A stretch of 64,000 nt of DNA, taken from Terracidiphilus sp. GTDB lineage: Bacteria > Acidobacteriota > Terriglobia > Terriglobales > Acidobacteriaceae. The first letter of the stretch is position 1; every line of letters starts with the position of its first letter. The stretch covers positions 30,042 to 94,041 of the forward strand of contig JBEKTO010000004.1 in the NCBI GenBank assembly GCA_049515995.1. The letters run 5' to 3'. The position numbers and the translations under genes were made by a program. Positions 7,115 through 60,675 of the stretch are shown piece after piece. Under the pieces are notes generated by a model, which saw only the letters and a program-made list of their open reading frames with translations, was not told the origin of the DNA and ran no database searches.

Positions 7115-7483
7115 CCCTTTCTCCGTCGAAGGTTCGCCGGTCGCATGATAGCGATCTGGCCCGGTTTGGCAGTGGAGGCGAAACCTGAGGGGAAAAGCAG
7201 GTTCTTCGACTGCGCATGGCGCCCAGCCACCCAGCGACAAAGGCCTGCCGCCGGGGTCCCCGGCCACGCGCCCTCCTTCGCTCAAGATGAACGGGGCTTA
7301 TGCTGTGCGTTTCGCCGCGCCGCCTACGGGGCGCGGAATTGCTTTTGGCCTCTTTCCCAGGACTGCGCTTCGCTTGTCCTGGGCTATTTTCCTGCCGCCC
7401 CTCCGGGGCTGCTGTTGCGTGGCCGGTTCCTTCCCGGCCTACTCGCACCGCGCGTCCGTTGCTCGGGATAAACGGAGCCGGAT

Positions 7484-10482: not shown

Positions 10483-11436
10483 CTACAAGCCCGCCGTGCG
10501 GAAGGGATCGATGTTGAGGAAGTGCATGAGGGATTTGTCGTAGAAGGGGGTGAAGGTGACGGTGAGCAGGAAGAGGATCATGCCCACGATGCCGAGGATG
10601 AGGCGGCTGCGGCTGAGTTTGGACTCGAGGGGAATCTTGGGGTGGCGCATGGCGGGAATCATGAGGAAGAGGCCCCAGAGAATCCAGCCGATCCAGAAGA
10701 GCGTTCCGGCGATGAAGAGCAGGAAGGGCAGCACGTTGGTGGAGATTTTGTGGAGCCGGGGAGAGAGGGCGTAGAGAACGTGTCCGCCGTCGAGCTGGCC
10801 GCCGGGGATGAGGTTGAGCGAGGTGATGAAGAGGCCGATCCAGCCGGCCACCAGCACGGGGTGGGGCGCGATGCGATCGAAGGAGGGGATGGTGGGGTCC
10901 CAGTGGACGAGGAGGGCGTGGAGGAAGCGGATGGTGAGGGGTTCGCCGCCAAAGCGGACGAAGGCGGCAGGCGCGTCGGCGGACGCGTGAAAGCTGAGGG
11001 CAAAGCCCACGGCCACGGCCACGGCGGAGGCGGCATAACCGGCCAGTGGGCCCAAGACGCCCACGTCCATGAGGGCGTCGCGGCTGGGAATCCGAGAACG
11101 GATCTGGATGAGGGCGCCGGCGGTGCCGCCGAGGGTGGGAGCCGGCAGCACCCAGGGCAGCGTGGCGCGAATGCCGTGCGCGCGGCAGGCGAAATAGTGG
11201 CCGAACTCATGGATGAGCAGGATGCCGAGCAGAGCCAGGGAAAAGCTCCAGCCGGTCTTGAAGAGATCGGGATGATCGGCCAGCCAGCCCCAGGGCCAAA
11301 GGTCGCTGTCGCGGACCACCGGCGGCATGCCTTCCATGAAGTTCTGCATGAAGCGGGCGCCATTGGCGGTGGTGGTGACCACACTGGCCGCGAGGAGCAG
11401 CAGGGGAAGGCAATACTCCCGAAAAAAAGATCGCAC
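10483..11436 (-). CDS. Site-2 protease family (M50) membrane metalloprotease
   Basis: HEFGH (HExxH) in a TM helix, GPLAG, NLIPGGQLDGGH. Confidence 0.9.
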   Translation of the reverse strand: MRSFFREYCLPLLLLAASVVTTTANGARFMQNFMEGMPPVVRDSDLWPWGWLADHPDLFKTGWSFSLALLGILLIHEFGHYFACRAHGIRATLPWVLPAPTLGGTAGALIQIRSRIPSRDALMDVGVLGPLAGYAASAVAVAVGFALSFHASADAPAAFVRFGGEPLTIRFLHALLVHWDPTIPSFDRIAPHPVLVAGWIGLFITSLNLIPGGQLDGGHVLYALSPRLHKISTNVLPFLLFIAGTLFWIGWILWGLFLMIPAMRHPKIPLESKLSRSRLILGIVGMILFLLTVTFTPFYDKSLMHFLNIDPFRTAGL

Positions 11437-11584
11437 CGGACTCCTCTTGCGTGCTCAAAGCGACTGGAGAATGCCAGACCGGTTCCCGGAACAGTAAAGT
11501 CCACAGATCTCCGGAAAAGCGGATCGCCTGGCCGCTGGGCCCCGATCTGCGCGGTGGATAGCCGATTGCCGGACCCGGTGCGCT

Positions 11585-11875
11585 CTATTTGCCCGTGGCA
11601 CCGTCCGCATCCAGCGAATGCAGTTCCTTGCCCGGCTTGAAACGCACAGCCTTGCCGGGTGTGATGCTGACTTCGGTACCGGTGCGGGGATTGCGGCCGA
11701 TGCCGGTTTTGCGGGCGCGGACGCTGAAGACGCCAAATCCGCGCAGTTCGATTCGCTCACCGGCCGCGAGAGCCTGCTTGAGGCCTTCGAAGACGGTATC
11801 CACCGCGGCTTCTGCCTTGGTGCGCGGCAGGCCCGTGCGCTCGATTACATGATGGACGATGTCCTGCTTAATCAA
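11585..11875 (-). CDS. HU/IHF family DNA-binding protein
   Basis: IELRGFGVF, GRNPRTG, VRFKPGKEL. Confidence 0.93.
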   Translation of the reverse strand: MIKQDIVHHVIERTGLPRTKAEAAVDTVFEGLKQALAAGERIELRGFGVFSVRARKTGIGRNPRTGTEVSITPGKAVRFKPGKELHSLDADGATGK

Positions 11876-49141: not shown

Positions 49142-50005
49142 TTACACGGCCGGAGTTGCATCGAGGTGCAGGCCGGCGAAGGAGATGAGCTCGAGGCTGG
49201 GAAACCGGGTCAGCGCGCGCAGTGCATCCCGCTCGATCTCCCGCGAGGCGAGCAGACGGGTGCGGGCATGGGCCAGATCGGCGTCGTTGTAGCCGGGATG
49301 CGTCACCAGCTCCCAGGCGCCGGCGGGCAGTTGCTGGAGCAGGGAAGCGACCGCGGCGGCGTTGAGGGTTCCGGTGGCCAGCACGCCCAGAGCGCCATCG
49401 GTGGTGGTAAAGCCCTCCTTCGCTACGATGCGGCGAAAGGCGGGTTCAAGGCGGCGGAGCAGGCGGACTTCCGCGCGCCGCAGCCAGAGAGCGCCGGAGG
49501 TGGCGTGGAGGCTCCAGGCCGGCTCGAAGGGATTGCGGACGGCGCGAATTCCGGCGGCTTTGGCCGCGCGCAGCACAGGCCGGAGCACGGCGGGAAACAT
49601 GTGGATGTGCTTGTGGGCATCGATGTGGGTGAGCGCGAGGCCCCTGGACTGGAGGAAGGCGATCTGCGCGGCGGCTTCGGCCTCGATTTCGGCGGAGCGA
49701 ATGCGCCCAGTCAGCAGGCGCTGCAGAAACGCGCCCAGCGTGGGCTGAAAGCGGCCTGTCCGAGGGTCGATGAGCGTGGGAATCTGGCGCGGCGGCAGCA
49801 TGGGCTCGCCATCCACAAGAACGACATGGCAGCCGACGCCCAGCGAGGGCGTGGCGCGGGCGATTTCGATGGCTTCGGCCGTGGCTGCGGCCCGCGCCAT
49901 GAGCGTGGTGCTGGTCAGCACTTCTGCGCGATGCAGCTCGAGAATGGCCCGGTTGACTCCGGCAGTCAGCCCGAAGTCGTCGGCGTTGACGATAAGTCGG
50001 CCCAC
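49142..50005 (-). CDS. ChbG/HpnK (YdjC) family deacetylase
   Basis: IVNADDFG, GCHVVL, THIDAHKHIH, ELVTHPG. Confidence 0.88.
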   Translation of the reverse strand: MGRLIVNADDFGLTAGVNRAILELHRAEVLTSTTLMARAAATAEAIEIARATPSLGVGCHVVLVDGEPMLPPRQIPTLIDPRTGRFQPTLGAFLQRLLTGRIRSAEIEAEAAAQIAFLQSRGLALTHIDAHKHIHMFPAVLRPVLRAAKAAGIRAVRNPFEPAWSLHATSGALWLRRAEVRLLRRLEPAFRRIVAKEGFTTTDGALGVLATGTLNAAAVASLLQQLPAGAWELVTHPGYNDADLAHARTRLLASREIERDALRALTRFPSLELISFAGLHLDATPAV

Positions 50006-50101
50006 AAGGCAAGTTTATCAACTCAGGGCGGCGCGTTCCCCGATGAAGCTGCCGCGCTGGTATGATGAGTGGAAGGGCACAATCGCCTTGCCGCCGCGCG
50101 T

Positions 50102-50178
<77 letters not shown>

Positions 50179-50190
50179 TGAACCTGTTTT

Positions 50191-50353
50191 AAGTCATCCA
50201 AAGACATCCAAGAGAATAGATAAATCCCCGGTAAACACTGGGGATTTCGTATTTCTACGTCCAAGGGCGTACTATCAAAGCCAAGTTCTGCGGGGGGTAC
50301 TTTCCGGGGTATTTAGTTTTTCAAGGGGGGTACTTTTCTCTGCGGGGGTATTT
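50191..50353 (+). promoter_or_regulatory. attL arm region: 10-bp tandem repeat, hairpin and four GGGG(G)TAYTT arm-type repeats
   Basis: AAG(T/A)CATCCA x2 at 50191-50210; AAATCCCC/GGGGATTT hairpin 50222-50247; repeats at 50293, 50305, 50326, 50344. Confidence 0.6.
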
Positions 50354-50366
50354 GAGGGGCGTTGAA

Positions 50367-51584
50367 ATGTCATTGACGGATACAGAGGTTCGCAGGTCCA
50401 AACCAACTGAGAAGGCGTATCGACTGAGCGATGGTGGAAGCCTGTACCTTTGGGTCACTCCAGCCGGTGGCAAGCTGTGGCGCTGGGCTTACAACCATGA
50501 CGGCAAAGAAAAGCTCATGTCCTTTGGCAAATACCCCGATGTGCCTCTGGCGCTGGCCAGAGAGCGCCACACTGAGGCTCGCAGGTTGCTTGCGGTGGGC
50601 ACCGATCCAATGGCACAGCGGAAGGCTGACAAGACCGCCGCAAAGAGTGCCTCCGAGAATTCCTTCCAGATGGTTGCGGGCCTTTGGTTCGATCACTGGC
50701 GGGTGGATAAGAGCCGCCAGCATGTGGACGCTACACGTCGGCGCATGGCTGCGAACATCTTTCCACTGCTAGGCGCGCGCCCGATTACGGAGATTGAAGC
50801 GCCGGAACTGGTGCTCATGGTCAAAGCGATAGAAGGACGCGGCGCGGCGGACCTGGCAAAGCGGGCGCTAGAGAACACGGGCCAGATATTTCGATTTGCC
50901 ATTGCGCATGGGTACGCGAAACGCAATCCGGCAAGCGAGATTCGCCCTGCTGACGTTCTAAGACCGACGCATAAAACCAATCTTGCCCGCATTGACGCAA
51001 AAGAGTTGCCGGACCTTCTACGCGCGATTGAGGTATACAGAGGGACGCATGTCACCCGCTTGGGATTGAAGCTGATGGCCCTCACTTTTGTGCGCACCAG
51101 CGAATTGATTGGAGCGAAGTGGACAGAGTTCGACATGGACGCTGCCCGGTGGGACATTCCCGCAGAGCGCATGAAGATGCGGACCCAGCACATTGTCCCT
51201 TTGGCCGCGCAAGCAATCGAAGTGCTGGAGATGCTGCGCACGTTGACCGGGGATAGTGAGTGGCTCTTCCCCGGTGATCGTAGCGCCGCAAAGCCCATGA
51301 GCAACAACACGATTCTGATGGCGCTTAAGCGCATGGGCTACAAAGGCAGAATGACGGGGCATGGCTTTCGCGGGCTGGCGTCCACTGTCTTGCATGAGAA
51401 GGGCTATGGGCATGAGCACATCGAATTGCAGCTTGCACACGCGCCGCGCAATGCCGTGAGCGCGGCCTATAACCATGCCTTGTACTTGGAACCGCGCGCC
51501 AAAATGATGCAGGATTGGGCGGATTTTCTAGAGCAAACTCTACGCGGTGGCAAGCTGATTCCGTTTCGCAGCCATGTAGCATGA
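50367..51584 (+). CDS. P4-family tyrosine integrase 1
   Basis: Arm-binding domain (DGGSLYLWV...GKLWRWAY...GKYPDVPLA.AR); catalytic R (RTSEL), HGFR, QLAH, AYN. Confidence 0.95.
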   Translation: MSLTDTEVRRSKPTEKAYRLSDGGSLYLWVTPAGGKLWRWAYNHDGKEKLMSFGKYPDVPLALARERHTEARRLLAVGTDPMAQRKADKTAAKSASENSFQMVAGLWFDHWRVDKSRQHVDATRRRMAANIFPLLGARPITEIEAPELVLMVKAIEGRGAADLAKRALENTGQIFRFAIAHGYAKRNPASEIRPADVLRPTHKTNLARIDAKELPDLLRAIEVYRGTHVTRLGLKLMALTFVRTSELIGAKWTEFDMDAARWDIPAERMKMRTQHIVPLAAQAIEVLEMLRTLTGDSEWLFPGDRSAAKPMSNNTILMALKRMGYKGRMTGHGFRGLASTVLHEKGYGHEHIELQLAHAPRNAVSAAYNHALYLEPRAKMMQDWADFLEQTLRGGKLIPFRSHVA

Positions 51585-51920
51585 AGCGCCGAACCGCTGC
51601 ATCGGCGGGCCGGTTACATTGATGGACTTGTGACGGAATCCAAGGTGACTGTGGGCAACTTCGGAGACGGCGCAGCCTTGCTCACCAGTTGCAACCAATT
51701 GCACAAGCGCACCACCTTGGCTTCCTTGGCACCAGCGACGGGGAGAGGTTTCAACCCGTGCCTGGCGGCGCGCTGTGCGGCATTTTGGCGTGGCGCTGCC
51801 GTTCCTCCATGCCGTCCCCAAAATCTCCGCAGACACCAAAACTTGCGCGGTTTTTCGACCTTGGAGCAGGTTGGAAATAGATGGACGGCATGAGCCTGTC
51901 CCATCACAGGAGAGAGTGCA

Positions 51921-52145
51921 TTGGACAATCTAGAGAAGATTATTCGTCTGCAAGCGGTCAAGGCGCGGTGTGGACTCAGTCGGAGCACGCTTTACAACCG
52001 GATGGCGGCGGGGGAGTTCCCGTCTCCAATATCACTCGGAGCGCGCTCAGTAGGCTGGGTGGAGTCTGAAATCAATGCTTGGATTGCAACTCGAATCAAT
52101 GCAAGTCGGAAGGCCATCCCGAACAAAGATGCAAAGGCTGCGTAA
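51921..52145 (+). CDS. alpA: AlpA family regulator / recombination directionality factor
   Basis: IRLQAVKARCGLSRSTLY..MAAGEFP.PISLG.RSVGW.ESEINAW. Confidence 0.9.
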   Translation: MDNLEKIIRLQAVKARCGLSRSTLYNRMAAGEFPSPISLGARSVGWVESEINAWIATRINASRKAIPNKDAKAA

Positions 52146-52293
52146 GCCCGAAGGGTCACCGTGGCACATGGAAGCGGCGTAGGGGCGCGAGGGAGGGTTA
52201 ACCTTCCTTGTGCATCCTAATTCGCTCCCGCAATGCACCAGCGCGGTTGTAGCCGCGCCGCGATACCCTTAACATAACTTTCAAGGATCGAAC

Positions 52294-53397
52294 ATGAGCG
52301 AATCGAATCCCGCCAATACAAAGCGGGCGCGCGGCGGAACGGGAAATTTCTTCATCGTTGACCAGAGGCTTTGGAAGGCAGTTTGCGATGAGGGCGACAT
52401 AAACGCCGCCGCCGCATGGCTACTGTTGTCGCAAGGGACGGGCGCGAACCAGCGCACGACCGCCTGGTCTGTAGATGCAATCATGCGTTACCTGGGCATG
52501 GGCTATAACCGTGGGAAAGAGGCAATCGACAAACTGATTGCCCTGAGATTCATTCGGTACGGCGAAAAGCACACGCAACGGAAGCCGCGCTATGACCTGC
52601 TTACATTCCCCGAATGGAACGCTCTGATTCACAAGCCCCGCAAGGGTAAGAGTGCAAGCGCGGAAGAGGACCCCGAAAACAACCTCATCTGGCTTCCCAA
52701 CGAACTTATCAAGGCAGCCGACGGCGAAAAACCGCCGATACGTAAGCTGCGGGCGTCTGGTGACCTTTGGGCTCTGCGCCTGTTCGTTGACCTCTACCAT
52801 GAGCACAACCTGAGAGATGACGGGGGAATCACCCGCAAGTTCTTGTGGCTAAAATATGACGCGATGAACCTCGGCGAGCGGGGACCGTACAGGATCATGG
52901 GCTTTAAGCCCGCCGGGAAATGGATAACTTGGGACGGTCCTTTCCGAATTCACCAGTCGCGACCGAAACTGAACCCCGACGCACAACCCACTTGGGATAG
53001 CTTGCATATCCTAGAGCAGACCGGCGTTCTGACGTTCATCCCGCATCTGGTGGAGAACGATACAAAGGCCGCCGAACCAATTCACGCGGTCGGAATCGGC
53101 GGACACAGTGAGCACCCCATCGAAACCCAAATCGGAAACGAGGCGCGCCGTACCGCAGTCGCCATGTGTCAACCCTGGCAGCTCGAACGGGCGCAACGGG
53201 ACGGATTGATTCTGTGTCCGGTAAGCCGGGATTACCCAAACGCTCAATTGGTCGGAATTGCCCGCTTGCATTACAGGCCGCATACGAAACGCACATCCGC
53301 CTGGAGCAGCAATCTGCAATATGCCGGACCTAAATGTGTTGACCATTTCCGACGCATGGCAGCCGAATATGCTGTGCAAGAGGCTGCATTCGCTTAA
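52294..53397 (+). CDS. Hypothetical protein, possible wHTH replication initiator
   Basis: N-terminal WSVDAIMRYLGMGYNRGKEAIDKLIALRFI resembles a wHTH; position after alpA. Function is inferred. Confidence 0.5.
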   Translation: MSESNPANTKRARGGTGNFFIVDQRLWKAVCDEGDINAAAAWLLLSQGTGANQRTTAWSVDAIMRYLGMGYNRGKEAIDKLIALRFIRYGEKHTQRKPRYDLLTFPEWNALIHKPRKGKSASAEEDPENNLIWLPNELIKAADGEKPPIRKLRASGDLWALRLFVDLYHEHNLRDDGGITRKFLWLKYDAMNLGERGPYRIMGFKPAGKWITWDGPFRIHQSRPKLNPDAQPTWDSLHILEQTGVLTFIPHLVENDTKAAEPIHAVGIGGHSEHPIETQIGNEARRTAVAMCQPWQLERAQRDGLILCPVSRDYPNAQLVGIARLHYRPHTKRTSAWSSNLQYAGPKCVDHFRRMAAEYAVQEAAFA

Positions 53398-53410
53398 ACG
53401 GGAGAGAGAC

Positions 53411-53460
53411 ATCAAAGGGGTTCAAGGATAGTTCAAAGAAGAAATCAAAGAGAATCAAAG
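53411..53460 (+). repeat. Five phased (A/T)TCAA(A/G)G repeats, iteron-like
   Basis: Copies at 53411, 53421, 53432, 53444, 53454 (10-12 bp spacing) just after the Rep-like stop. Confidence 0.6.
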
Positions 53461-53901
53461 CCTCTGTAAGCACAAATTCACCCCCAACCCCCTCAAGGGG
53501 GCTAGCGCAGAGGCAAGCTCTGCGCCGTTGGTTCGTAAACTGCTTTTCCTAAGATTGTCCGAACACGCTAAGCGCTTCACAATAGAGCTAACCCATGCTG
53601 CATCCAAGCGTCTGTTTCCCCGATTACTACGAACTCGCAAGCCGCTCAGTGCGGACGGCTGATGCGCCGCAATCCACCGCTAACGCCGCCCGCGCGGAAC
53701 GCCCGCGGCCGGATTTCCAGCGGATTGTGCTCCCGTCTGGCTGTGTACTTTTCCGGCTGCGTCTGCCGCGCGAAAAAGCATTCGGAATGAAGCCAAAATG
53801 CAGGCAGGCTGATTAGAGTCCCCCAGCCCCTTCATGACCAATCATGTTCCTTAAAGGGACCCGGCATTGTGCGCCCCAGTTTGCTGTTGCAGAATCAAAG
53901 T

Positions 53902-56900
53902 GTGCATCCTGTTGAGTCCTATCTCGTCAAACTGGCGGAAATTCGCGCGTCCGGTCATGCCACCGATGAAACGTCCTTCTATCCGGCGGTTGAGGGGCTG
54001 CTCTCGGAAATCGGCAAACGGCTCAAGCCGCGCGTCTCGCCTGTCCTGCAATTGAAGAATCGTGGCGCTGGCCTGCCAGACGGCGGCCTCTTCACACAGG
54101 ATCAACTCAAAAAGAACGCCGTGCCCGACGACTTCACCGTACAGCCGCCGAATCGCGGCGTGGTAGAGGTGAAGGGCCTCGCGGAAGAGACCGGTAAGAC
54201 TGCCCAATCCGAGCAGGTGAAGAAGTATCTGCGCGCCTACGGGCAAGTCCTGCTGACCAATTACCGGGAGTTTCGCGTGGTGGTGATGGGCAAGGACGAT
54301 AAGCCGCGCACCCTGGAGACCTTCACTCTGGCAAAGAGCGAAGCCGCATTCTGGGCGCTGGCTGCGCATCCGCACAAGACAGAAGGCGAAGTCGGCAAGA
54401 TGCTGGAGGAGTTTCTCACCCGCGCCCTGCTCAGTGCCGTGCCCATCACTTCGCCGGACGTGCTGGCCAGCTTTCTGGCTTCCTATGCCCGTGAGGCGCT
54501 GGCTAAGATCGAGCCGCGCTCTTCGCTCAAGGAACTGGAAGACGTGCGCAAGGCGCTGGAAGAGGCGCTCGGCCTCAAGTTTGAAAGCGATCTGGCTACG
54601 GAAAAAGAGAACAAGAAAGGCCAGCATTTCTTCCGCAGTACGCTGGTGCAAACGCTCTTCTATGGCCTGTTCTCCGCATGGGTGCTCTGGAGCCGTGAAC
54701 CGGGCCGCCGCAAGGGAGACAGCTTCGAGTGGAAGTCCGCTGTCTGGTCTCTTCAGGTTCCCATGATTCGCGCCCTCTTCGAGCGCCTGGTAACGCCGTC
54801 GCACGTTCGCTCCCTGGGTTTGGAAGAACTGCTCTCGCTCACCGGCGAAGTGCTGAACCGCGTGGATACCGCAGCTTTCTTCCAGCGATTTGAAGAAGAC
54901 ACCGCTGTCCAATACTTCTATGAGCCGTTTCTGGAGGCTTTCGACCCGGAACTGCGCAAGCAGCTTGGCGTCTGGTACACGCCACGCGAGATTGTGCGCT
55001 ACATGGTGGAGCGCGTGGACACGGTTCTGCGCACGGAACTGGGATTGCCCTCTGGCCTTGCCGACCCCAACGTTTACGTTCTCGATCCCGCCTGCGGCAC
55101 GGGCGCGTATCTGGTGGAGGTGCTGGACCGCATCCATCGGACGCTGAAAGAAGAGCGCGGCGAAGATGCGCTCACGCCGCACCAGCTCAAACAGGCGGCC
55201 AAAGAGCGCGTCTTCGGATTCGAGATTCTGCCCGCGCCTTACGTCATCGCGCACCTCCAGATTGGAATGTACCTGCAACGGGAGAAGGCACCGCTCCTTG
55301 AAGAACAGACCGGCAAGCGGGAGCGGGCTGGCGTGTATCTGACCAATGCGCTCACCGGTTGGGAGCCGCCTGACAAGCAAAAGGCGCAACTGCCCTTCGA
55401 GGAGTTTGAAGAGGAACGCGAGGAGGCCGATACCGTCAAGCGCGACAAGCCCATCCTGGTGGTGCTGGGCAATCCGCCGTACAACGCCTTCGCCGGAGTC
55501 AGTCCCACGGAAGAAGACGGGCTGGTAGAGCCCTACAAAGAGGGACTTATCACGGAATGGGGCATCAAGAAGTTCAATCTCGATGACCTCTATATCCGTT
55601 TCTTCCGTCTGGCCGAAAGGCGCATCGCGGAGAAGAGCCATCGCGGCGTGGTCTGCTTCATCTCCAATTTTTCCTATCTCAGCGAGCCATCTTATGTGGT
55701 CATGCGCAAGCGGCTTCTCAATGGCTTCGATGCGCTTTGGTTTGACTGTTTGAATGGCGATAGCCGGGAGACGGGAAAGCTGACGCCAGAGGGCAAACCA
55801 GACCCCAGTGTCTTTTCTACGGAGAGCAACCGCGAAGGAATTCGCGTGGGAACCGCCATCGGCCTGATGATTCGCCGGAATAAGGCGAAGGGCGATTCTT
55901 CTGTGCATTATCGCGAGCTTTGGGGAACGCGCAAACGCGAAGAGCTTGTCGAGAGCTTGGAAGATACTGCGCTCGAAGGCCGATACGCGAACGCCGCGCC
56001 GACTCATGCCAATCGTTTCTCTTTTCAGCCCCAAGAGGTGAGCGCCGCATACAGCGAATGGCTAAAGATCACTGAGCTATGCGCGGAATCTCCCAGCAAC
56101 GGCCTGATGGAAAAGCGCGGGGGTGCGCTGATTGACATCGACCGCGAAAAGCTGGAAGAGCGGATGCGCCTCTACCATGACAAGAGCCTGGACTGGGATG
56201 CCTACCGGCTGGCATCGTCCACCCTCACCGGCGATTGGTCAGGGTTCGATGCGCGCAAGTTGCGTGCGCGGGCGCTGGACGCGGGATTCCAGATCAGCCA
56301 GATTGTCCGCTATGCTGTGCGCCCTTTCGATACGCGCTGGTGTTATTTCTCAGACATTCCGTCAATCTGGAATCGGTCGCGCCCTGCTCTGTGGGCGCAG
56401 TGCTTTGAGGGGAATTCGTTCCTGCTGACGCGGATGCGTTGTACGGCATCTCCAGAGGGTTTCCCTATCAGTTTCAGCAAGTGCCTTTCGGATGACCATT
56501 ACATTATCCCCGATGCTGTAGCCGTCCCGTTTCTTTTGCAGCATCCGGCCACCAGCATGTTTGCCAGTGAGCAGACTGACGGCAACCTCTCCCAATTGGC
56601 CAGCGATTACCTGCGCAGTCTGAAACTGGGTAACAGCCCGGCGAGCGCCGCGTCCCTTTGGCTGCACACGCTCGCCATCGGCCACAGCCCCGCCTATCTG
56701 GAAGAGAACGCCGACGGCATCCGGCAGGATTGGCCGCGCATTCCGCTGCCGTCTTCGTTGGACCAGTTCAACGCATCGGCGGCGCTGGGGCAGGGTGTGG
56801 CGGATTTGCTGGACACGGAAAACCCTGTAGCGGGCGTGACGGCGGGCGCGCTGCGGCCCGAGTTGCGCTCTGTTGCCGGACTGAAGCGCATGGACGGCAA

Positions 56901-57378
56901 GCCGCTGAACGCAGAAGAAGATTTGCAACTCACGGCAGGCTGGGGACACGCCGGAAAAGAAGGCGTGACCATGCCGGGACGCGGCAAGCTGGTAAGCCGT
57001 GAGCGGACGGCGAAGGAACTCGCCGATCTGGCGCAAGGGCTGGCGGCGCTGGGCATCGAGCAGGATGAAGGCTTGGCGCGTCTGGGCAGTACGGTGGTGG
57101 ATGTGTACTTGAACGACCTCTGCGCATGGACGAACGTGCCGGAAATGGTATGGGAAATCTACATCGGCGGCTATCAGGTGATGAAGAAATGGCTCAGTTA
57201 CCGGGAGTACAGCTTTCTGAAACGACCGCTGGCGTTGGCCGAAGCCGAAGAGGTGCAGGCAATGGCAAGGCGGCTTACCGCCCTCTGTCTTCTCCAGCCG
57301 GAACTCGACGCGAATTACCTCAAAGTGAAGAGCGCATCCTGGCAGGGGCAGCCCGCTCTTCAATCTGCTCAATCGTAG
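53902..57378 (+). CDS. Single-chain restriction-modification enzyme (N6-adenine MTase + type ISP-like specificity domain), no helicase
   Basis: PDG...VEVK nuclease-like N-terminus; GVWYTP, VLDPACGTGAYL, GNPPY; RYAVRPFD, WPRIP, GYQVMKKWL.YR. Confidence 0.85.
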   Translation: MHPVESYLVKLAEIRASGHATDETSFYPAVEGLLSEIGKRLKPRVSPVLQLKNRGAGLPDGGLFTQDQLKKNAVPDDFTVQPPNRGVVEVKGLAEETGKTAQSEQVKKYLRAYGQVLLTNYREFRVVVMGKDDKPRTLETFTLAKSEAAFWALAAHPHKTEGEVGKMLEEFLTRALLSAVPITSPDVLASFLASYAREALAKIEPRSSLKELEDVRKALEEALGLKFESDLATEKENKKGQHFFRSTLVQTLFYGLFSAWVLWSREPGRRKGDSFEWKSAVWSLQVPMIRALFERLVTPSHVRSLGLEELLSLTGEVLNRVDTAAFFQRFEEDTAVQYFYEPFLEAFDPELRKQLGVWYTPREIVRYMVERVDTVLRTELGLPSGLADPNVYVLDPACGTGAYLVEVLDRIHRTLKEERGEDALTPHQLKQAAKERVFGFEILPAPYVIAHLQIGMYLQREKAPLLEEQTGKRERAGVYLTNALTGWEPPDKQKAQLPFEEFEEEREEADTVKRDKPILVVLGNPPYNAFAGVSPTEEDGLVEPYKEGLITEWGIKKFNLDDLYIRFFRLAERRIAEKSHRGVVCFISNFSYLSEPSYVVMRKRLLNGFDALWFDCLNGDSRETGKLTPEGKPDPSVFSTESNREGIRVGTAIGLMIRRNKAKGDSSVHYRELWGTRKREELVESLEDTALEGRYANAAPTHANRFSFQPQEVSAAYSEWLKITELCAESPSNGLMEKRGGALIDIDREKLEERMRLYHDKSLDWDAYRLASSTLTGDWSGFDARKLRARALDAGFQISQIVRYAVRPFDTRWCYFSDIPSIWNRSRPALWAQCFEGNSFLLTRMRCTASPEGFPISFSKCLSDDHYIIPDAVAVPFLLQHPATSMFASEQTDGNLSQLASDYLRSLKLGNSPASAASLWLHTLAIGHSPAYLEENADGIRQDWPRIPLPSSLDQFNASAALGQGVADLLDTENPVAGVTAGALRPELRSVAGLKRMDGKPLNAEEDLQLTAGWGHAGKEGVTMPGRGKLVSRERTAKELADLAQGLAALGIEQDEGLARLGSTVVDVYLNDLCAWTNVPEMVWEIYIGGYQVMKKWLSYREYSFLKRPLALAEAEEVQAMARRLTALCLLQPELDANYLKVKSASWQGQPALQSAQS

Positions 57379-57408
57379 GCTTCCGAAAGAGCGGATGAAC
57401 TGCCCGCC

Positions 57409-57936
57409 CTAGTTTGCTGGTGGCTGCCCATCCGGGGCCGCGTTCTTGACCATCTGCGGCGCATCCGTTCCGGGGGTAGCAGACAGATGCCGGGCCACTG
57501 GAGCCGCGCCCGGCTTTGCGCGATGGCCGCGCCTCCGCTTCACAGGAACAGGCTGCGGCGGCACTCCAGGCACGCTCACAGCCGCTGGGGGCGTTGCGGG
57601 CGGGGTAGCGGGATGGGGAGAGAATAGAGCAGTGAGAAACAGCACAAGCAACCCACCAGCAATGAATGCCACTGTCAGGGCCGGGCCATTTCCCGCGCGT
57701 TGCTGCGAAGGCGCGCCGGAGGCGGGAGCCGCATCCCCGCCAGCCGTCGTGCCCTTACCCGCGTATGTCCGGCTGTAAAGGCCCGTACCGGGGATGGAAG
57801 CCGCCGCGTACGATCTGCCCTTTGCATCGGTGCCGACCCGAAAGCCGCGCACACCGATGGAAGTTCCTATGCCGGACTTGGACAGGTTCAACCTGAGTGG
57901 TCCAAGTTTGATGCTTTTACGAAATCGCCATGCCAT
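57409..57936 (-). CDS. DUF4236 domain membrane protein
   Basis: MAWRFRKSIKLGPLRLNLSKSGIGTSIG...SIPGTGLYS, TM helix, Pro/Ala tail. Confidence 0.8.
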   Translation of the reverse strand: MAWRFRKSIKLGPLRLNLSKSGIGTSIGVRGFRVGTDAKGRSYAAASIPGTGLYSRTYAGKGTTAGGDAAPASGAPSQQRAGNGPALTVAFIAGGLLVLFLTALFSPHPATPPATPPAAVSVPGVPPQPVPVKRRRGHRAKPGAAPVARHLSATPGTDAPQMVKNAAPDGQPPAN

Positions 57937-58070
57937 GTCCCCGCAATTCTACCCCCACCAGCACGCCGCCATTGGCTCTAAGTCGTTTCCAGAGTAATCG
58001 GGCGAACTTTCTAATCCTGGACATATCCCGCCTTTTGCTTTGAGCCGGTTGTGCAGCGAAATTTGCGCGT

Positions 58071-58092
58071 GGGGGCCAATATGGGGGCCAAT
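58071..58092 (+). repeat. 12-bp direct repeat GGGGGCCAAT(AT) x2 abutting the integrase 2 start
   Basis: Copies at 58071 and 58083; related GGGGACAAAAT-GGGGCCGAT at 59650-59669. Confidence 0.6.
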
Positions 58093-59284
58093 GGAGGTAG
58101 TGAACCTCACAGACAAACAACTCGCCTCGCTGAAACCGAAACAGGCCCGCTATTCGGTCCATGACGGGAGCGGCCTCTATGTGGAGGTCTGGCCCAGCGG
58201 TGTGAAGAGTTGGAGGGTCCGCTATTTGCAGAATGGGCACCGCCGCCGAATCAATCTAGGGCGCTATCCCGGTTTGAGTTTGGCCGGCGCACGGGGCAAG
58301 CGAAATGAACTGACAGAGGTAATCCGTGCTGGTAGCTCTCCGGCGGAGGAGCGGCGAAAGCAGAAACAGGAAATGCTGCGCGATCTCACGGTGAAGGATT
58401 TTGGCGAGCGGTATCTGCGCGAAGTAGTGATGCAGGCGCGCAAGGATGCTGCTCCCATGCGCCGGTATCTGGAGCGGAACGTGTACCCGGTCATCGGTGG
58501 AATGGCGGTTTCCATGGTGCACACAGAGCATGTGCGCGACCTCGTGTTTGCAATTCGGGATGCCGGACACGGGCAAGCGGCGGTAGCGGTCCGCAACCTG
58601 CTGAAACGGGTCTGGGATTATGCGCTTGCGTGTGGGATGGTAGCGGACAATCCGGCCCGTGCAACGCCGGTCAAGTTCATTTCGATTGCGAAGGCCCGGA
58701 ACAGAGCCTTGAATGAGACTGAGACCGGTATGTTTCTCCGCAGATTGGACGCCGCTTCGCTGCGGCCTCTGCTGCAAACCGCTCTGCGGCTGCTTCTGTT
58801 GACGCTCACCCGAAAATCGGAGGTACGCCTGGCACGCTGGGAACACATCGACTTTGAGCGCGGGGAGTGGGAGATTCCACCAGAGCATTCAAAGACCGGC
58901 ACAGGGCAGATAGTGTATTTGTCGCGTCAAGCATCGGCGTTGCTGGAGCGATTGCGGCCATCGGCGGAGCGTGTGGGCTATTTGTTCCCTGCATTGGGCA
59001 GCGATGGCAGTTCACCGATTGGGCGAAGCACGCTCAACCGCGCCTTGGAACGCGCACAACGCGGCATGGCGCATTTCACTGTGCATGATCTGCGGCGGAC
59101 TGGTGCCACCCGGTTAAGCGAGATGGGATACAACCCGGATTGGATTGAGAAGGCCCTGAACCATAAACTGCGCGGTGTGCGTGGAATCTACAACCGGGCC
59201 GAATACGGACCCCAACGCCGCAAGATGCTCCAAGAATGGGCAGACAGCCTGGACTCTTTGCAGCATACCGCTAAGGCAGCCTAG
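58091..59284 (+). CDS. P4-family tyrosine integrase 2
   Basis: DGSGLYVEV...VKSWRVRY...LGRYP.LSLA.AR; R (RKSEV), HDLRRT, ALNH, IYN all intact. Confidence 0.93.
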   Translation: MEVVNLTDKQLASLKPKQARYSVHDGSGLYVEVWPSGVKSWRVRYLQNGHRRRINLGRYPGLSLAGARGKRNELTEVIRAGSSPAEERRKQKQEMLRDLTVKDFGERYLREVVMQARKDAAPMRRYLERNVYPVIGGMAVSMVHTEHVRDLVFAIRDAGHGQAAVAVRNLLKRVWDYALACGMVADNPARATPVKFISIAKARNRALNETETGMFLRRLDAASLRPLLQTALRLLLLTLTRKSEVRLARWEHIDFERGEWEIPPEHSKTGTGQIVYLSRQASALLERLRPSAERVGYLFPALGSDGSSPIGRSTLNRALERAQRGMAHFTVHDLRRTGATRLSEMGYNPDWIEKALNHKLRGVRGIYNRAEYGPQRRKMLQEWADSLDSLQHTAKAA

Positions 59285-59347
59285 ACGGGCCGGGTTCGCG
59301 GGCGCTGTAGCAAAGGAAAAAGGGGTCTCAGTGTCGCCAGAGCGAGC

Positions 59348-59535
59348 GGGTCCTTCCCCGTCTGTGCGCGCTACGGGTGACGCGCCACCCCACCTCCGCC
59401 CTAGCGCCAGAGATTTTTGACCCGAGTTCCGTTTCCGCATTTCTTTGTTTCATTTTCCGATCATGTACTTGATTTCTTGGCGCTTGTGCGAAAAGTGGAG
59501 TCGGAACATACGGAACTGACAGCCCCTTTTCCGTT
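59348..59535 (+). other. Candidate lambda-like cos packaging site
   Basis: GGGTCCT, TACGGGTG-N6-CACCC dyad, AGTTCCGT/ACGGAACT inverted pair with an IHF-like site between them, third TTTCCGTT. Confidence 0.5.
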
Positions 59536-59691
59536 TACGGGAGACAGATTATCGCCGGTTCCTCGCTAGTGTGCCTCTAGCGCCGAAGAATTGGCGGCTT
59601 TCACAGCCCCAAAGGCGTGCCGTGCGAGAATTCTGGTAGAAGTGGGCACGGGGACAAAATGGGGCCGATTCACCCCTAGCGCAGCTTTGGC

Positions 59692-59779
59692 GGGGGTACT
59701 TTTGGGGGTATTCCTTGGAGGTTCATTTTCAAGCTGCTGAAAATGCGTAGTTTATGGCATGATTCGAGTCCCTCACTGC
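59692..59779 (+). promoter_or_regulatory. attR arm repeats and core
   Basis: GGGGGTACTTTT-GGGGGTATT (59692-59712); CATTTTCA/TGAAAATG dyad (59724-59745); core 59763-59779. Confidence 0.8.
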
Positions 59780-59809
59780 GCCGGGGTGGCAGTAGAAGTT
59801 TGACATTTG

Positions 59810-59838
59810 CGGGAGTCGTCCCCGTTTTGTTTTTTTTT
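59810..59838 (+). terminator. Short hairpin with long U tract downstream of attR
   Basis: CGGGA-GTCG-TCCCCG followed by TTTTGTTTTTTTTT. Confidence 0.5.
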
Positions 59839-59884
59839 ACCTTCTTCCGGCAAACACGTTGGATGGGCGCGGAGCATGAGCGCC

Positions 59885-59970
59885 GTCCCTACGGGACTCC
59901 GGCTGAATGGTTGGTTTCGCCAACCCCACGCTGAAGCGCGGGGCTAACAACCACTGCGCCTACGGCGCGG
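59885..59970 (+). repeat. Composite REP-like element
   Basis: GTCCC-TAC-GGGAC, CCCCACGCTGAAGCGCGGGG and CCACTGCGCCTACGGCGCG. Confidence 0.6.
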
Positions 59971-60160
59971 TCGACTGGCTGCTGCCGACGCCCTGGCCAA
60001 GTCGCAGTGCGTCGTACCTACGGCGCGGGCGACGGGCTACTGCTGACGCCCTGGCCAAGTCGCAGTGCGTCGTACCTACAGCGCGGGCGACGGGCTGCTG
60101 CTGACGCCCTGGCCAAGTCGCAGTGCGTCGTACCTACAGCGCGGGCGACGGGCTGCTGCC
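59959..60160 (+). repeat. 58-bp tandem repeat, about 3.5 copies
   Basis: Unit GACGCCCTGGCCAAGTCGCAGTGCGTCGTACCTAC(G/A)GCGCGGGCGACGGGCT(A/G)CTGC(T/C) at 59987, 60045, 60103. Confidence 0.92.
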
Positions 60161-60675
60161 GGTAAGGAGCGCTTCTACACAGGCCCCTTTGAGGGGTCAC
60201 CCATCCTAAAGCCCCCGGCTCTGCCGAGGGATATTTACAGCTTTTATATAGCAGTGCAAAACTGTTGGTTCGCAGCGCCCTAACGACTGCGCACACGATC
60301 GAGCTGTCTTGCGCGAACCCTTCTCGAAGGCTGCCGCGAAACCGCCAGAATCTTCTCGAACAAGGCAATAAATTGCCCACGCGGAATGTCCCTAAATTTC
60401 ATTTGACAGTTTCGCCCGGCTGTAGCAGACTTCTCATTCGTCAGGGGATTCTCTTCCTCAAAGCACGTGTTTCGTACGGCAATTTGTTCAGTCGATAACC
60501 CCTGCCTCCGAAATCTCTTTCCCCTCGTCCTTCTTGGACCTTGTTGCTATCGATACCACTCGACCGCACGATTGTTGAGGTTGCGCGGCTTTGCTCCTGG
60601 TCCTTGTCTGAACTGCTGGTTGCCAGAATTTCACGATTGCCCGGTTCTCACCTGAAAGCGGTCGAGGAGGTTCCC

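Follow-up and report, generated by a model that had tools for sequence, protein, structure and literature searches.

Cos-type phage-inducible chromosomal islands (PICIs) found in enterobacteria, reportedly described by Fillol-Salom in 2018/2019, are small islands flanked by a tRNA gene or att repeats which carry int and alpA and no virion genes (EcCICFT073 and relatives). Near one end they possess a cos site whose cosQ and cosN match those of lambda-like helper phages; their cosB is different, and Rpp, a TerS-like protein encoded just after cos, retargets the TerS of the helper (Feiss 2022, PMC9026076). In lambda-like phages themselves cosQ is strongly conserved, and so is the left half of cosN, while its right half is variable (PMC4669245). 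Helper-derived cos sites without a terminase gene are also present in P4, whose helper is P2, and in SaPIbov5-type cos islands (SaPIs), and P4-like elements hold hotspots of anti-phage defence genes (PMC9122126). Here we describe a comparable locus in a 64,000-nucleotide stretch of a Terracidiphilus sp. contig (JBEKTO010000004.1, positions 30,042 to 94,041; the window). The segment 59326-59535 is, with a probability that we put at about 0.72, a complete, functional-looking cos which derives from temperate lambda-like phages of peat and wetland soils and still matches theirs, and it is situated on a 9.6-kb island without terminase or virion genes. The island is most likely a phage satellite which would be packed into the capsids of its helper phage.

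Homology of the orphan cos to packaging sites of soil phages

A preliminary description, made from the letters of the window alone, had proposed an orphan lambda-style cosQ-cosN-cosB, and each of its motifs is present: GGGTCCT at 59348-59354, the dyad TACGGGTG-ACGCGC-CACCC (GGGTG-ACGCGC-CACCC) at 59375-59390, and AGTTCCGT at 59425-59432 with its exact inverse ACGGAACT at 59510-59517 and the same-sense TTTCCGTT (59528-59535). The minus strand bears the IHF-like 13-mer AATCAAGTACATG at 59462-59474. Three more TTCCG sites, which that description had missed, lie at 59432-59436, 59455-59459 and, on the minus strand, 59502-59506. Taken one by one, the motifs are not above chance (GGGTCCT, 6 occurrences in the window against 7.2 expected; the IHF-like pattern with one mismatch, 11 against 13; TTCCGNTTCC, 3 against 0.75), and it is through homology that the region is real.

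IMG/VR was searched with patterns from the conserved block next to integrase 2 (int2). The block 59326-59516 aligns with cos regions upstream of terS and terL in more than 50 viral contigs, which share the string (CCTCAG)...GGGTCCTTCC-N17/18-GGGTGACGCGC-N15-CTAGCGCCAG-T run-TTCCGNTTCCG, and the order of the motifs and their spacings (17/15/16 nt) are common to the window and the phage loci. Of 53 viral loci, 52 have a terS gene whose start lies 58-98 nt (mostly 69 nt) downstream of the first G of GGGTGACGC, and terL follows terS wherever enough viral sequence is present. The terS product matches PHROG 57 (phrog_57, "terminase small subunit", 2.8e-31), carries the JGI name "phage terminase Nu1 subunit" and, across 167 aligned residues, has 25% identity to lambda Nu1 (E 2e-9). 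The terL product has GpA_ATPase and GpA_nuclease domains (1e-73 to 1e-88), and the closest TerL of a cultured phage is at most 46% identical. The position of the shared string upstream of terS and terL identifies the block as the cos region of a lambda-like phage family, so that the alignment to terS-upstream regions proposed in the preliminary description came out positive. Many contigs of this family are 38-41 kb long. One prophage on a 725-kb contig (L255) has the order replication genes, integrase, Acb2/Tad1-like gene, cos, terS, terL, lambda-type portal and capsid gene. The Acb2/Tad1 hairpin domain, found here in a 68-aa gene (L255 9503-9709) between the integrase and the cos of an intact prophage, occurs in anti-CBASS/anti-Thoeris sponges.

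In the window the block (plus strand unless stated) begins, as judged from the alignment, with a weakly conserved TCTCAG box at 59326-59331, which reads CCTCAG in most phages. It is followed by cosQ, GGGTCCTTCC (59348-59357), whose first 7 nt equal lambda cosQ and which does not vary among 27 unique phage cos sequences and six orphan loci, the window included. An apparent hairpin covariation between the window and an alphaproteobacterial locus (L010) around 59356-59377, judged by eye, was dropped because the pairing registers differ. The predicted cosN, GGGTGACGCGCC at 59375-59386, is set within the imperfect dyad GGGTGACG/CGCCACCC (59375-59390) and would form a 12-nt cohesive end with the nicks at its predicted borders. 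Its positions 1-9 are 96-100% conserved in phages, the conserved left half being GGGTGACGC, and positions 10-11 are variable. Two viral contigs, L081 and L108, begin at positions 2 and 9 of the predicted 12-mer, which suggests, although it does not prove, that they start at physical ends. A viral scan with GCGGGTCCTTCCCC for contigs ending at cosN returned mostly random 14-mer matches and no right-end example, and look-ups via TerS clusters, the ranking of which favours well-flanked genes, returned no contigs starting at cos.

Between cosN and the first R site, cosB holds the CTAGCGCCAG box and a T run (59401-59418), 96-100% conserved in phages and at a fixed distance of 15 nt from cosN. R-left, the tandem TTCCG-T-TTCCG at 59427-59437, covers bp 53-63 counted from the first G of cosN and thus occupies the position of lambda R3. 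An AT-rich spacer of 64 nt follows (59438-59501; 39% GC against 63% in the window), containing the TTCCG at 59455-59459 and the IHF-like match. R-right, on the minus strand at 59502-59516 (bp 128-142), is the inverted tandem CGGAAC-ATA-CGGAAC, includes ACGGAACT and is non-coding here. R-left and R-right are the predicted TerS-binding sites, and phages and orphan loci alike conserve them. A third TTCCG site, TTTCCGTT (59528-59535), has the sense of R-left and is inconsistently conserved, being present in the window, L236, L245 and L010 and altered or absent in others.

The inverted pair of R sites proposed earlier is real, with the correction that R-right is the counterpart of a site which phages have inside terS. 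An inverted tandem CGGAA-N4-CGGAA lies within terS, 191-205 nt after R-left, in all 31 unique phage sequences, which places it ~270 nt after cosN (in loci such as L083, L056 and L075). It encodes a G-N-G-G-N linker following the winged-helix domain of TerS. At this site glycine is encoded by GGA in 62 of 62 cases, compared with 16% of the glycine codons in the rest of terS, and the DNA sequence itself is thus constrained; CGGAA-N4-CGGAA has the look of a binding site for TerS that is set within the coding part of terS. The distance from R-left to R-right is 64 nt in the window and 52-66 nt in four other orphan loci (L004, L005, L010 and L227). In a further one, L003, R-right is found 184 nt after R-left, and between them lies a decayed 5' remnant of terS of ~52 codons (L003 7348-7560), which has lost its start codon in a cos that is otherwise orphan. 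This intermediate layout shows that the orphan cos is derived from an int-cos-terS module of a phage. A terS remnant was also looked for in the window and none was found.

Distribution and conservation of orphan cos loci

As the preliminary description stated, no terS open reading frame (ORF) follows cos, and tblastn found no TerS or TerL homologue anywhere in the window, nor in L003-L005, L010 and L227. The lambda-type position of cos directly upstream of terS (Nu1) and terL (gpA) was found neither in the window nor in the other chromosomal loci. This orphan status, together with the terS-linked homologues, supports the proposed cosQ-cosN-cosB without a terminase gene. The same signal without terS or terL is present in ~20 other distinct chromosomal or metagenomic loci. 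In L003-L005, three Acidobacteriaceae metagenome-assembled genomes (MAGs) with relatives of int2, the conserved block comes right after the integrase and corresponds exactly to 59326-59440, and in L010, an Alphaproteobacteria MAG, it is found 4.3 kb downstream of the integrase. On the latter, 1.5-Mb contig the orphan cos (11395-11670) comes after TPR-repeat genes, the int2 homologue upstream is frameshifted, and 11607-11670 hold a partial second copy of the right half of cosN, the CTAG box and an R site.

A pattern specific for orphans (CTAG box, R-left, 45-75 nt, R-right) matched 27 metagenome contigs from peat, wetland and soil, none of which (0/27) contained terS or terL, and it had no match in IMG/VR viral contigs. 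The same pattern without the CTAG box matched only unrelated coding repeats (L113, L114) and was abandoned. The orphan loci show several architectures: DUF4236-int2-cos; int-alpA-...-DUF4236-cos without int2; alpA-p367-int2-cos; and p367-int2-three ORFs-cos. Most orphan contigs end in arm repeats and a core resembling a tRNA 3' end ~300-360 nt after cos, and in several architectures, some of them without int2, cos lies ~360 nt from the right island end.

The window has no mismatches at the 42 positions which are nearly invariant in phages, and all three spacings are identical. Comparison of the window with L003-L005 gives 87-92% identity for the 111-nt cos block and 74-78% for the third codon positions of int2. 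Among 18 distinct orphan sequences conservation is 0.97 for cosQ and 0.99 for cosN positions 1-9, compared with 0.67 for the linker and 0.58 for the upstream flank; these four regions all lay outside the orphan search pattern. Intact positions, slower divergence of cos and nearly invariant cosQ and cosN form a pattern that is unexpected for a decaying relic.

The window sequence comes from peat and wetland metagenomes. Three island-holding runs also contain contigs ~92% identical to the cos-terS-terL of one of the phages (L083), at similar depth (island against phage: 8.4 and 7.9 in run X2, 4.9-8.7 and 5.8-9 in X3, 20.4 and 23-26 in X4). At the sequence level the packaging signal of the island matches the cos of this phage family, a member of which thus shares its samples. 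A second member, L056, occurs in metagenomes from peat and metatranscriptomes from wetland. In Logan contigs of four runs over 49900-60400 neither an excision joint nor a circle joint was seen, and ends did not pile up at cosN, although contigs cannot show absence. In run X4 the contig depth over 59377-59727 drops from ~23-26 to 7.7 beyond 59428, where R-left starts and where one contig also ends; this suggests that other elements in the sample share cos up to this point and then diverge.

Boundaries and gene content of the island

The island measures 9,607 bp from core to core, has 58.5% GC against 63.7% in the flanks, and is bounded by an exact 17-bp repeat. Its integration target is tRNA-Val(TAC) at 50102-50178 (plus strand; ARAGORN, Rfam), the 3' part of which (50156-50172) is the attL core, and the 17-mer TTCGAGTCCCTCACTGC at 59763-59779 (plus strand) is an exact copy of that 3' end and forms the attR core. 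Two pairs of arm-type repeats, GGGGGGTACTTT/GGGGTATTT, lie on the attL side upstream of int1 (50292-50353, plus strand), and the pair is found again at 59692-59712 and, in related islands, at their right end. Arm-type repeats GGGGGTACTTT/GGGGGTAT are thus present at both island ends (50292-50353 and 59692-59712) and are separate from the cos motifs. The attR side (59650-59712, plus strand) has GGGGACAAAATGGGGCCGATT in addition to the int1-type GGGGGTACTTTTGGGGGTATT. GGGGACAAAATGGGGCCGATT resembles a GGGGGCCAAT pair at 58071-58092, upstream of int2, which overlaps the int2 start codon; the similar pair near attR, GGGGACAAAAT/GGGGCCGATT at 59650-59670, stands beside the int1-type arm repeats. 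Pairs of the GGGGGCCAAT type may be arm sites for int2.

Integrase 1 (int1; 50367-51584, plus strand) is a tyrosine recombinase of the P4 type that has an arm-binding domain (Pfam Arm-DNA-bind_3, Phage_int_M and Phage_integrase); its conservation in L003 and L234 is 89-94%. It is followed on the same strand by an AlpA-family excisionase/regulator at 51921-52145 (Pfam Phage_AlpA, 4e-19; phrog_2790, excisionase and transcriptional regulator) and, at 52294-53397, by a 367-aa protein (p367) with an N-terminal winged helix in its AlphaFold model (pLDDT 90). This protein had no sequence match in Pfam, PHROGs, NCBIfam or PDB; its 93 homologues are each annotated "hypothetical", and a homologue from Acidipila rosea, which was looked up, is not on record. 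The fold search returned only winged-helix matches and, as the best multi-domain one, a weak match to RepE54 (TM 0.43-0.45, E 0.1). The modelled fold makes it a weak candidate for a replication initiator, and a role in replication is a guess.

Defence cargo is represented by a Type ISP / type IIG restriction-modification enzyme of 1169 aa (53869-57378, plus strand; Pfam Type_ISP_C, 3e-32, and N6_Mtase), the counterparts of which are, in L004, an MmeI-like enzyme together with a TIR protein and, in L003, fragments of MmeI. These genes occupy a slot between the regulatory genes and the DUF4236 gene (53869-57378 in the window, 846-5396 in L004, 2856-5270 in L003), which behaves like a defence hotspot. 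The DUF4236 gene (57409-57936, minus strand; Pfam, 1.5e-22) adjoins cos or int2 in most related loci. Its product has a predicted membrane segment. No other neighbour of the orphan cos is as constant as this gene, which is transcribed away from cos. It is followed by int2 (58091-59284, plus strand; identified by Pfam), a homologue of the integrase just upstream of cos-terS in phages, which is 53% identical to the integrase of phage L056 and 31% to int1. Its codon-position identities of 92/94/75% indicate purifying selection. The non-coding stretch after int2, which holds the cos motifs, is 478 nt long, and cos lies ~360 nt from the right end of the tRNA-Val island. A model of two islands in tandem was dropped, as no second att core was found upstream of int2 within 3 mismatches. 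Searches with Pfam and PHROGs found no virion or structural genes in the island. With an integrase, att repeats, a length within the range of ~5-20 kb and no virion or lysis genes, the island has the general make-up of a phage satellite.

Just outside attR a 58-nt unit is repeated in ~3.5 tandem copies (59959-60159; also 59880-60170). The bin 59728-60078, which also spans the tRNA-end core of attR, has an assembler word depth of 540-2035 in four metagenome runs, compared with ~8-25 for the island, which indicates a dispersed high-copy repeat family. Elsewhere in the window, an Acido-Lenti-1 small RNA at 7356-7410 (Rfam RF01687, 38.8 bits against a gathering score of 37) fits an origin from Acidobacteriota.

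Functional cos or relic

The cos could be a non-functional relic, left when a prophage lost everything downstream of cos so that int2 and cos now hitchhike in an integrative island. The 53% identity of int2 to the integrase preceding phage cos, the adjacency of int and cos, which is the rule in phages, and the decayed terS remnant that L003 keeps after R-left all fit such a history. Nevertheless, the non-coding cos block diverges more slowly than the third codon positions of int2, 42 of 42 invariant positions and every spacing are intact, and cosQ and cosN stay nearly invariant in the 18 distinct orphan sequences while the linkers vary. R-right has been retained though its coding context is gone, and cos is also found beside DUF4236 without int2, in at least four architectures. 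We therefore regard a relic as unlikely. A working cos might also serve something other than transfer of the island itself, either as a decoy for terminase and procapsids in anti-phage defence or in a lateral-type transduction of flanking host DNA. The integrated cos does point outward, with the direction from cosN to cosB running towards attR and the chromosome, it is within ~360 nt of the island end, and restriction enzymes and TIR proteins on the islands would suit an anti-phage role. Against this, packaging of the lambda type cannot be completed unless there is a second cos with cosQ (PMC4669245), and the cosQ kept intact here is relevant only to termination, i.e. to units running from cos to cos; with att sites intact and both integrase and AlpA present, excision is indicated as well. 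Such a use seems to us distinctly improbable.

It is harder still to explain the repeats as recombination or regulatory sites (arm-type, Xis, IHF, promoter or operator) which merely resemble cos. Their place between an integrase gene and attR, and their short repeated motifs, might suggest it, and att/arm elements of integrase 2 had been named in the preliminary description as an alternative. However, the same sequence stands upstream of phage terS, far from any att site, cos is 2-4 kb from the integrase in L010 and L227, and the window has distinct arm repeats (59692-59712) and an att core (59763-59779) further downstream, separate from cos, which excludes the att/arm version; the probability of the whole explanation is very small. 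Chance likeness to lambda cos, finally, would agree with the frequency of each motif alone in the window, but it is already refuted by a block of 85-190 nt that has homologues, identically spaced, at more than 50 loci linked to terS, and its probability is negligible.

We thus favour a functional cos on a satellite, and conservation, context and co-occurrence with the phages suggest a packaging signal kept in cis. A mechanism can be outlined in which we infer the binding of the proteins, the sites of cleavage, replication and transfer alike. On induction of, or infection by, a helper phage of the family, the island would excise by the action of Int1 and AlpA on the 17-bp core and arm sites of the GGGGGTACTTT type, and it would be amplified into concatemers either by its own 367-aa protein or by the helper. 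Helper TerS would bind the two inverted TTCCG clusters (59427-59437 and 59502-59516) across the AT-rich spacer and position TerL to nick cosN at GGGTGACGCGCC (59375-59386). The DNA would be translocated in the direction from cosN to cosB, with attP, int1, alpA and the rest entering in that order, and cosQ (59348-59357) would allow the cut at a downstream cos. Since the genomes of the phages are ~38-41 kb, the packaged unit of the island would be a multimer (4 x 9.6 = 38.4 kb).

Several points weigh against the satellite. Cleavage and packaging are predictions from assembled contigs. No replication module was identified with confidence in the island, and no gene for capsid size or for redirecting terminase was found, so that multimers are needed. 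The invariance of R-left and R-right in the orphans from the metagenome scan is there by construction, because the scan pattern required both. L003 shows that the int2-cos module arose by prophage deletion, and some of the copies could be relics. The host of the phages, too, is one that we infer; no host names are on record for the TerS clusters of the family.

Comparison with lambda and with known satellites

The cosQ heptamer GGGTCCT of lambda is identical to that of the window. The cosN that begins with GGG is 23 nt after cosQ in lambda and 20 nt in the window, and is G-rich in both; in the lambda record GGGTCCT precedes TACG^GGG by 19 nt as against 17 nt here, a spacing shorter by 2 nt, as the preliminary description had noted. 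TACG itself, which had been read as part of the signal, is not conserved, and relatives have TGAG, TTGG or TTGC in its place. The asymmetry between the two halves of cosN reported for the lambda-like group, to which lambda, 21, phi80, N15 and Gifsy-1 belong, is the same in the present family. In lambda R3 spans bp 50-65 (PMC9026076). In the lambda record CGTTTCCG starts at bp 53, while in the window CGTTTCCG comes 52 nt after TACGGG, and the GTTTCCG of R3 (bp 54-60) is common to R-left (bp 53-63). The second R site is inverted in both, so that the window has, at the sequence level, a cosB of lambda type with repeated R sites, one of them inverted, from ~50 bp. The terminase of lambda is also homologous to that of the phage family (Nu1-like TerS, E 2e-9; gpA-type TerL). 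The IHF site which lambda has between R3 and R2, and which had been proposed for the window, does not hold up, as the match is at chance frequency (11 against 13 expected) and is not conserved in L004 and L005; an AT-rich spacer (39% GC) is present. Other differences are the cohesive end (GGGCGGCGACCT in lambda, GGGTGACGCGCC in the window), the extra CTAGCGCCAG box of the window and the phage family, and the inverted R site, which is upstream of terS in lambda and inside terS, ~205 nt away, in the related soil phages. The hosts of the lambda group are enteric, those of the present family are probably soil Acidobacteriaceae, and the window cos, unlike that of lambda, has no terminase gene after it.

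If the island is packaged through this cos, the packaging grammar of lambda (cosQ GGGTCCT, a cosN conserved in its left half, R sites ~55 bp in) would prove to be conserved far beyond enteric phages, and a cosB layout with one TerS site embedded in terS itself would be indicated. Acidobacteriota are a dominant and poorly cultured soil phylum, and a search of a literature library found no paper joining Acidobacteria with phage satellites. Under the same condition, cos-stealing satellites would extend to this phylum, and there would be a concrete sequence signature for satellites without any of the protein hallmarks that current detection tools use. Islands carrying restriction enzymes and TIR proteins may, moreover, be a route of defence-gene exchange in peat soils.

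The island shares with the enterobacterial PICIs its small size, tRNA and att flanks, int and alpA, the lack of virion genes, a cosQ and cosN matching lambda-like phages and the place of cos near one end. Unlike them, it keeps the R sites of the helper itself and has nothing encoded beyond its cosB, and no rpp-like or terS-like ORF follows cos; no ORF with a helix-turn-helix or with similarity to TerS was found after cos in the window. The order typical of Gram-negative PICIs (int-alpA, pri-rep, cos and then rpp) is present only as int and alpA, with no match to a primase or rep gene, and those PICIs belong to a different phylum from the window host. P4 and the SaPIbov5-type SaPIs have, like the island, a helper-derived cos without a terminase. 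The cos of P4 is of P2 type and belongs with another terminase family, while that of the window is of lambda/gpA type, and packaging as a multimer would be required here, unlike in P4 and SaPIbov5-type elements. Searches of Pfam, PHROGs and NCBIfam found neither the P4 hallmarks (sid, psu, delta and alpha primase) nor a Ccm-type capsid gene.

The phage TerS clusters are ~205 nt apart and flank the coding region of the DNA-binding domain of TerS, and their closer spacing in the islands (52-66 nt) could make these compete better for helper TerS. The smallest islands of this kind (int-alpA-DUF4236-cos) appear to be ~4.7 kb. We consider it quite possible, if somewhat short of probable, that the islands make up a minimal, hitherto undescribed group of cos-type satellites from Acidobacteriota, related to the copy in an Alphaproteobacteria MAG, which have no protein for redirecting terminase or remodelling capsids, keep the full cosB of the helper with the TerS clusters moved from ~205 to 52-66 nt apart, and spread as multimers in full-size helper capsids with variable defence cargo. 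The island itself would be a cos satellite in the style of P4, SaPIbov5 and the PICIs, standing outside those families.

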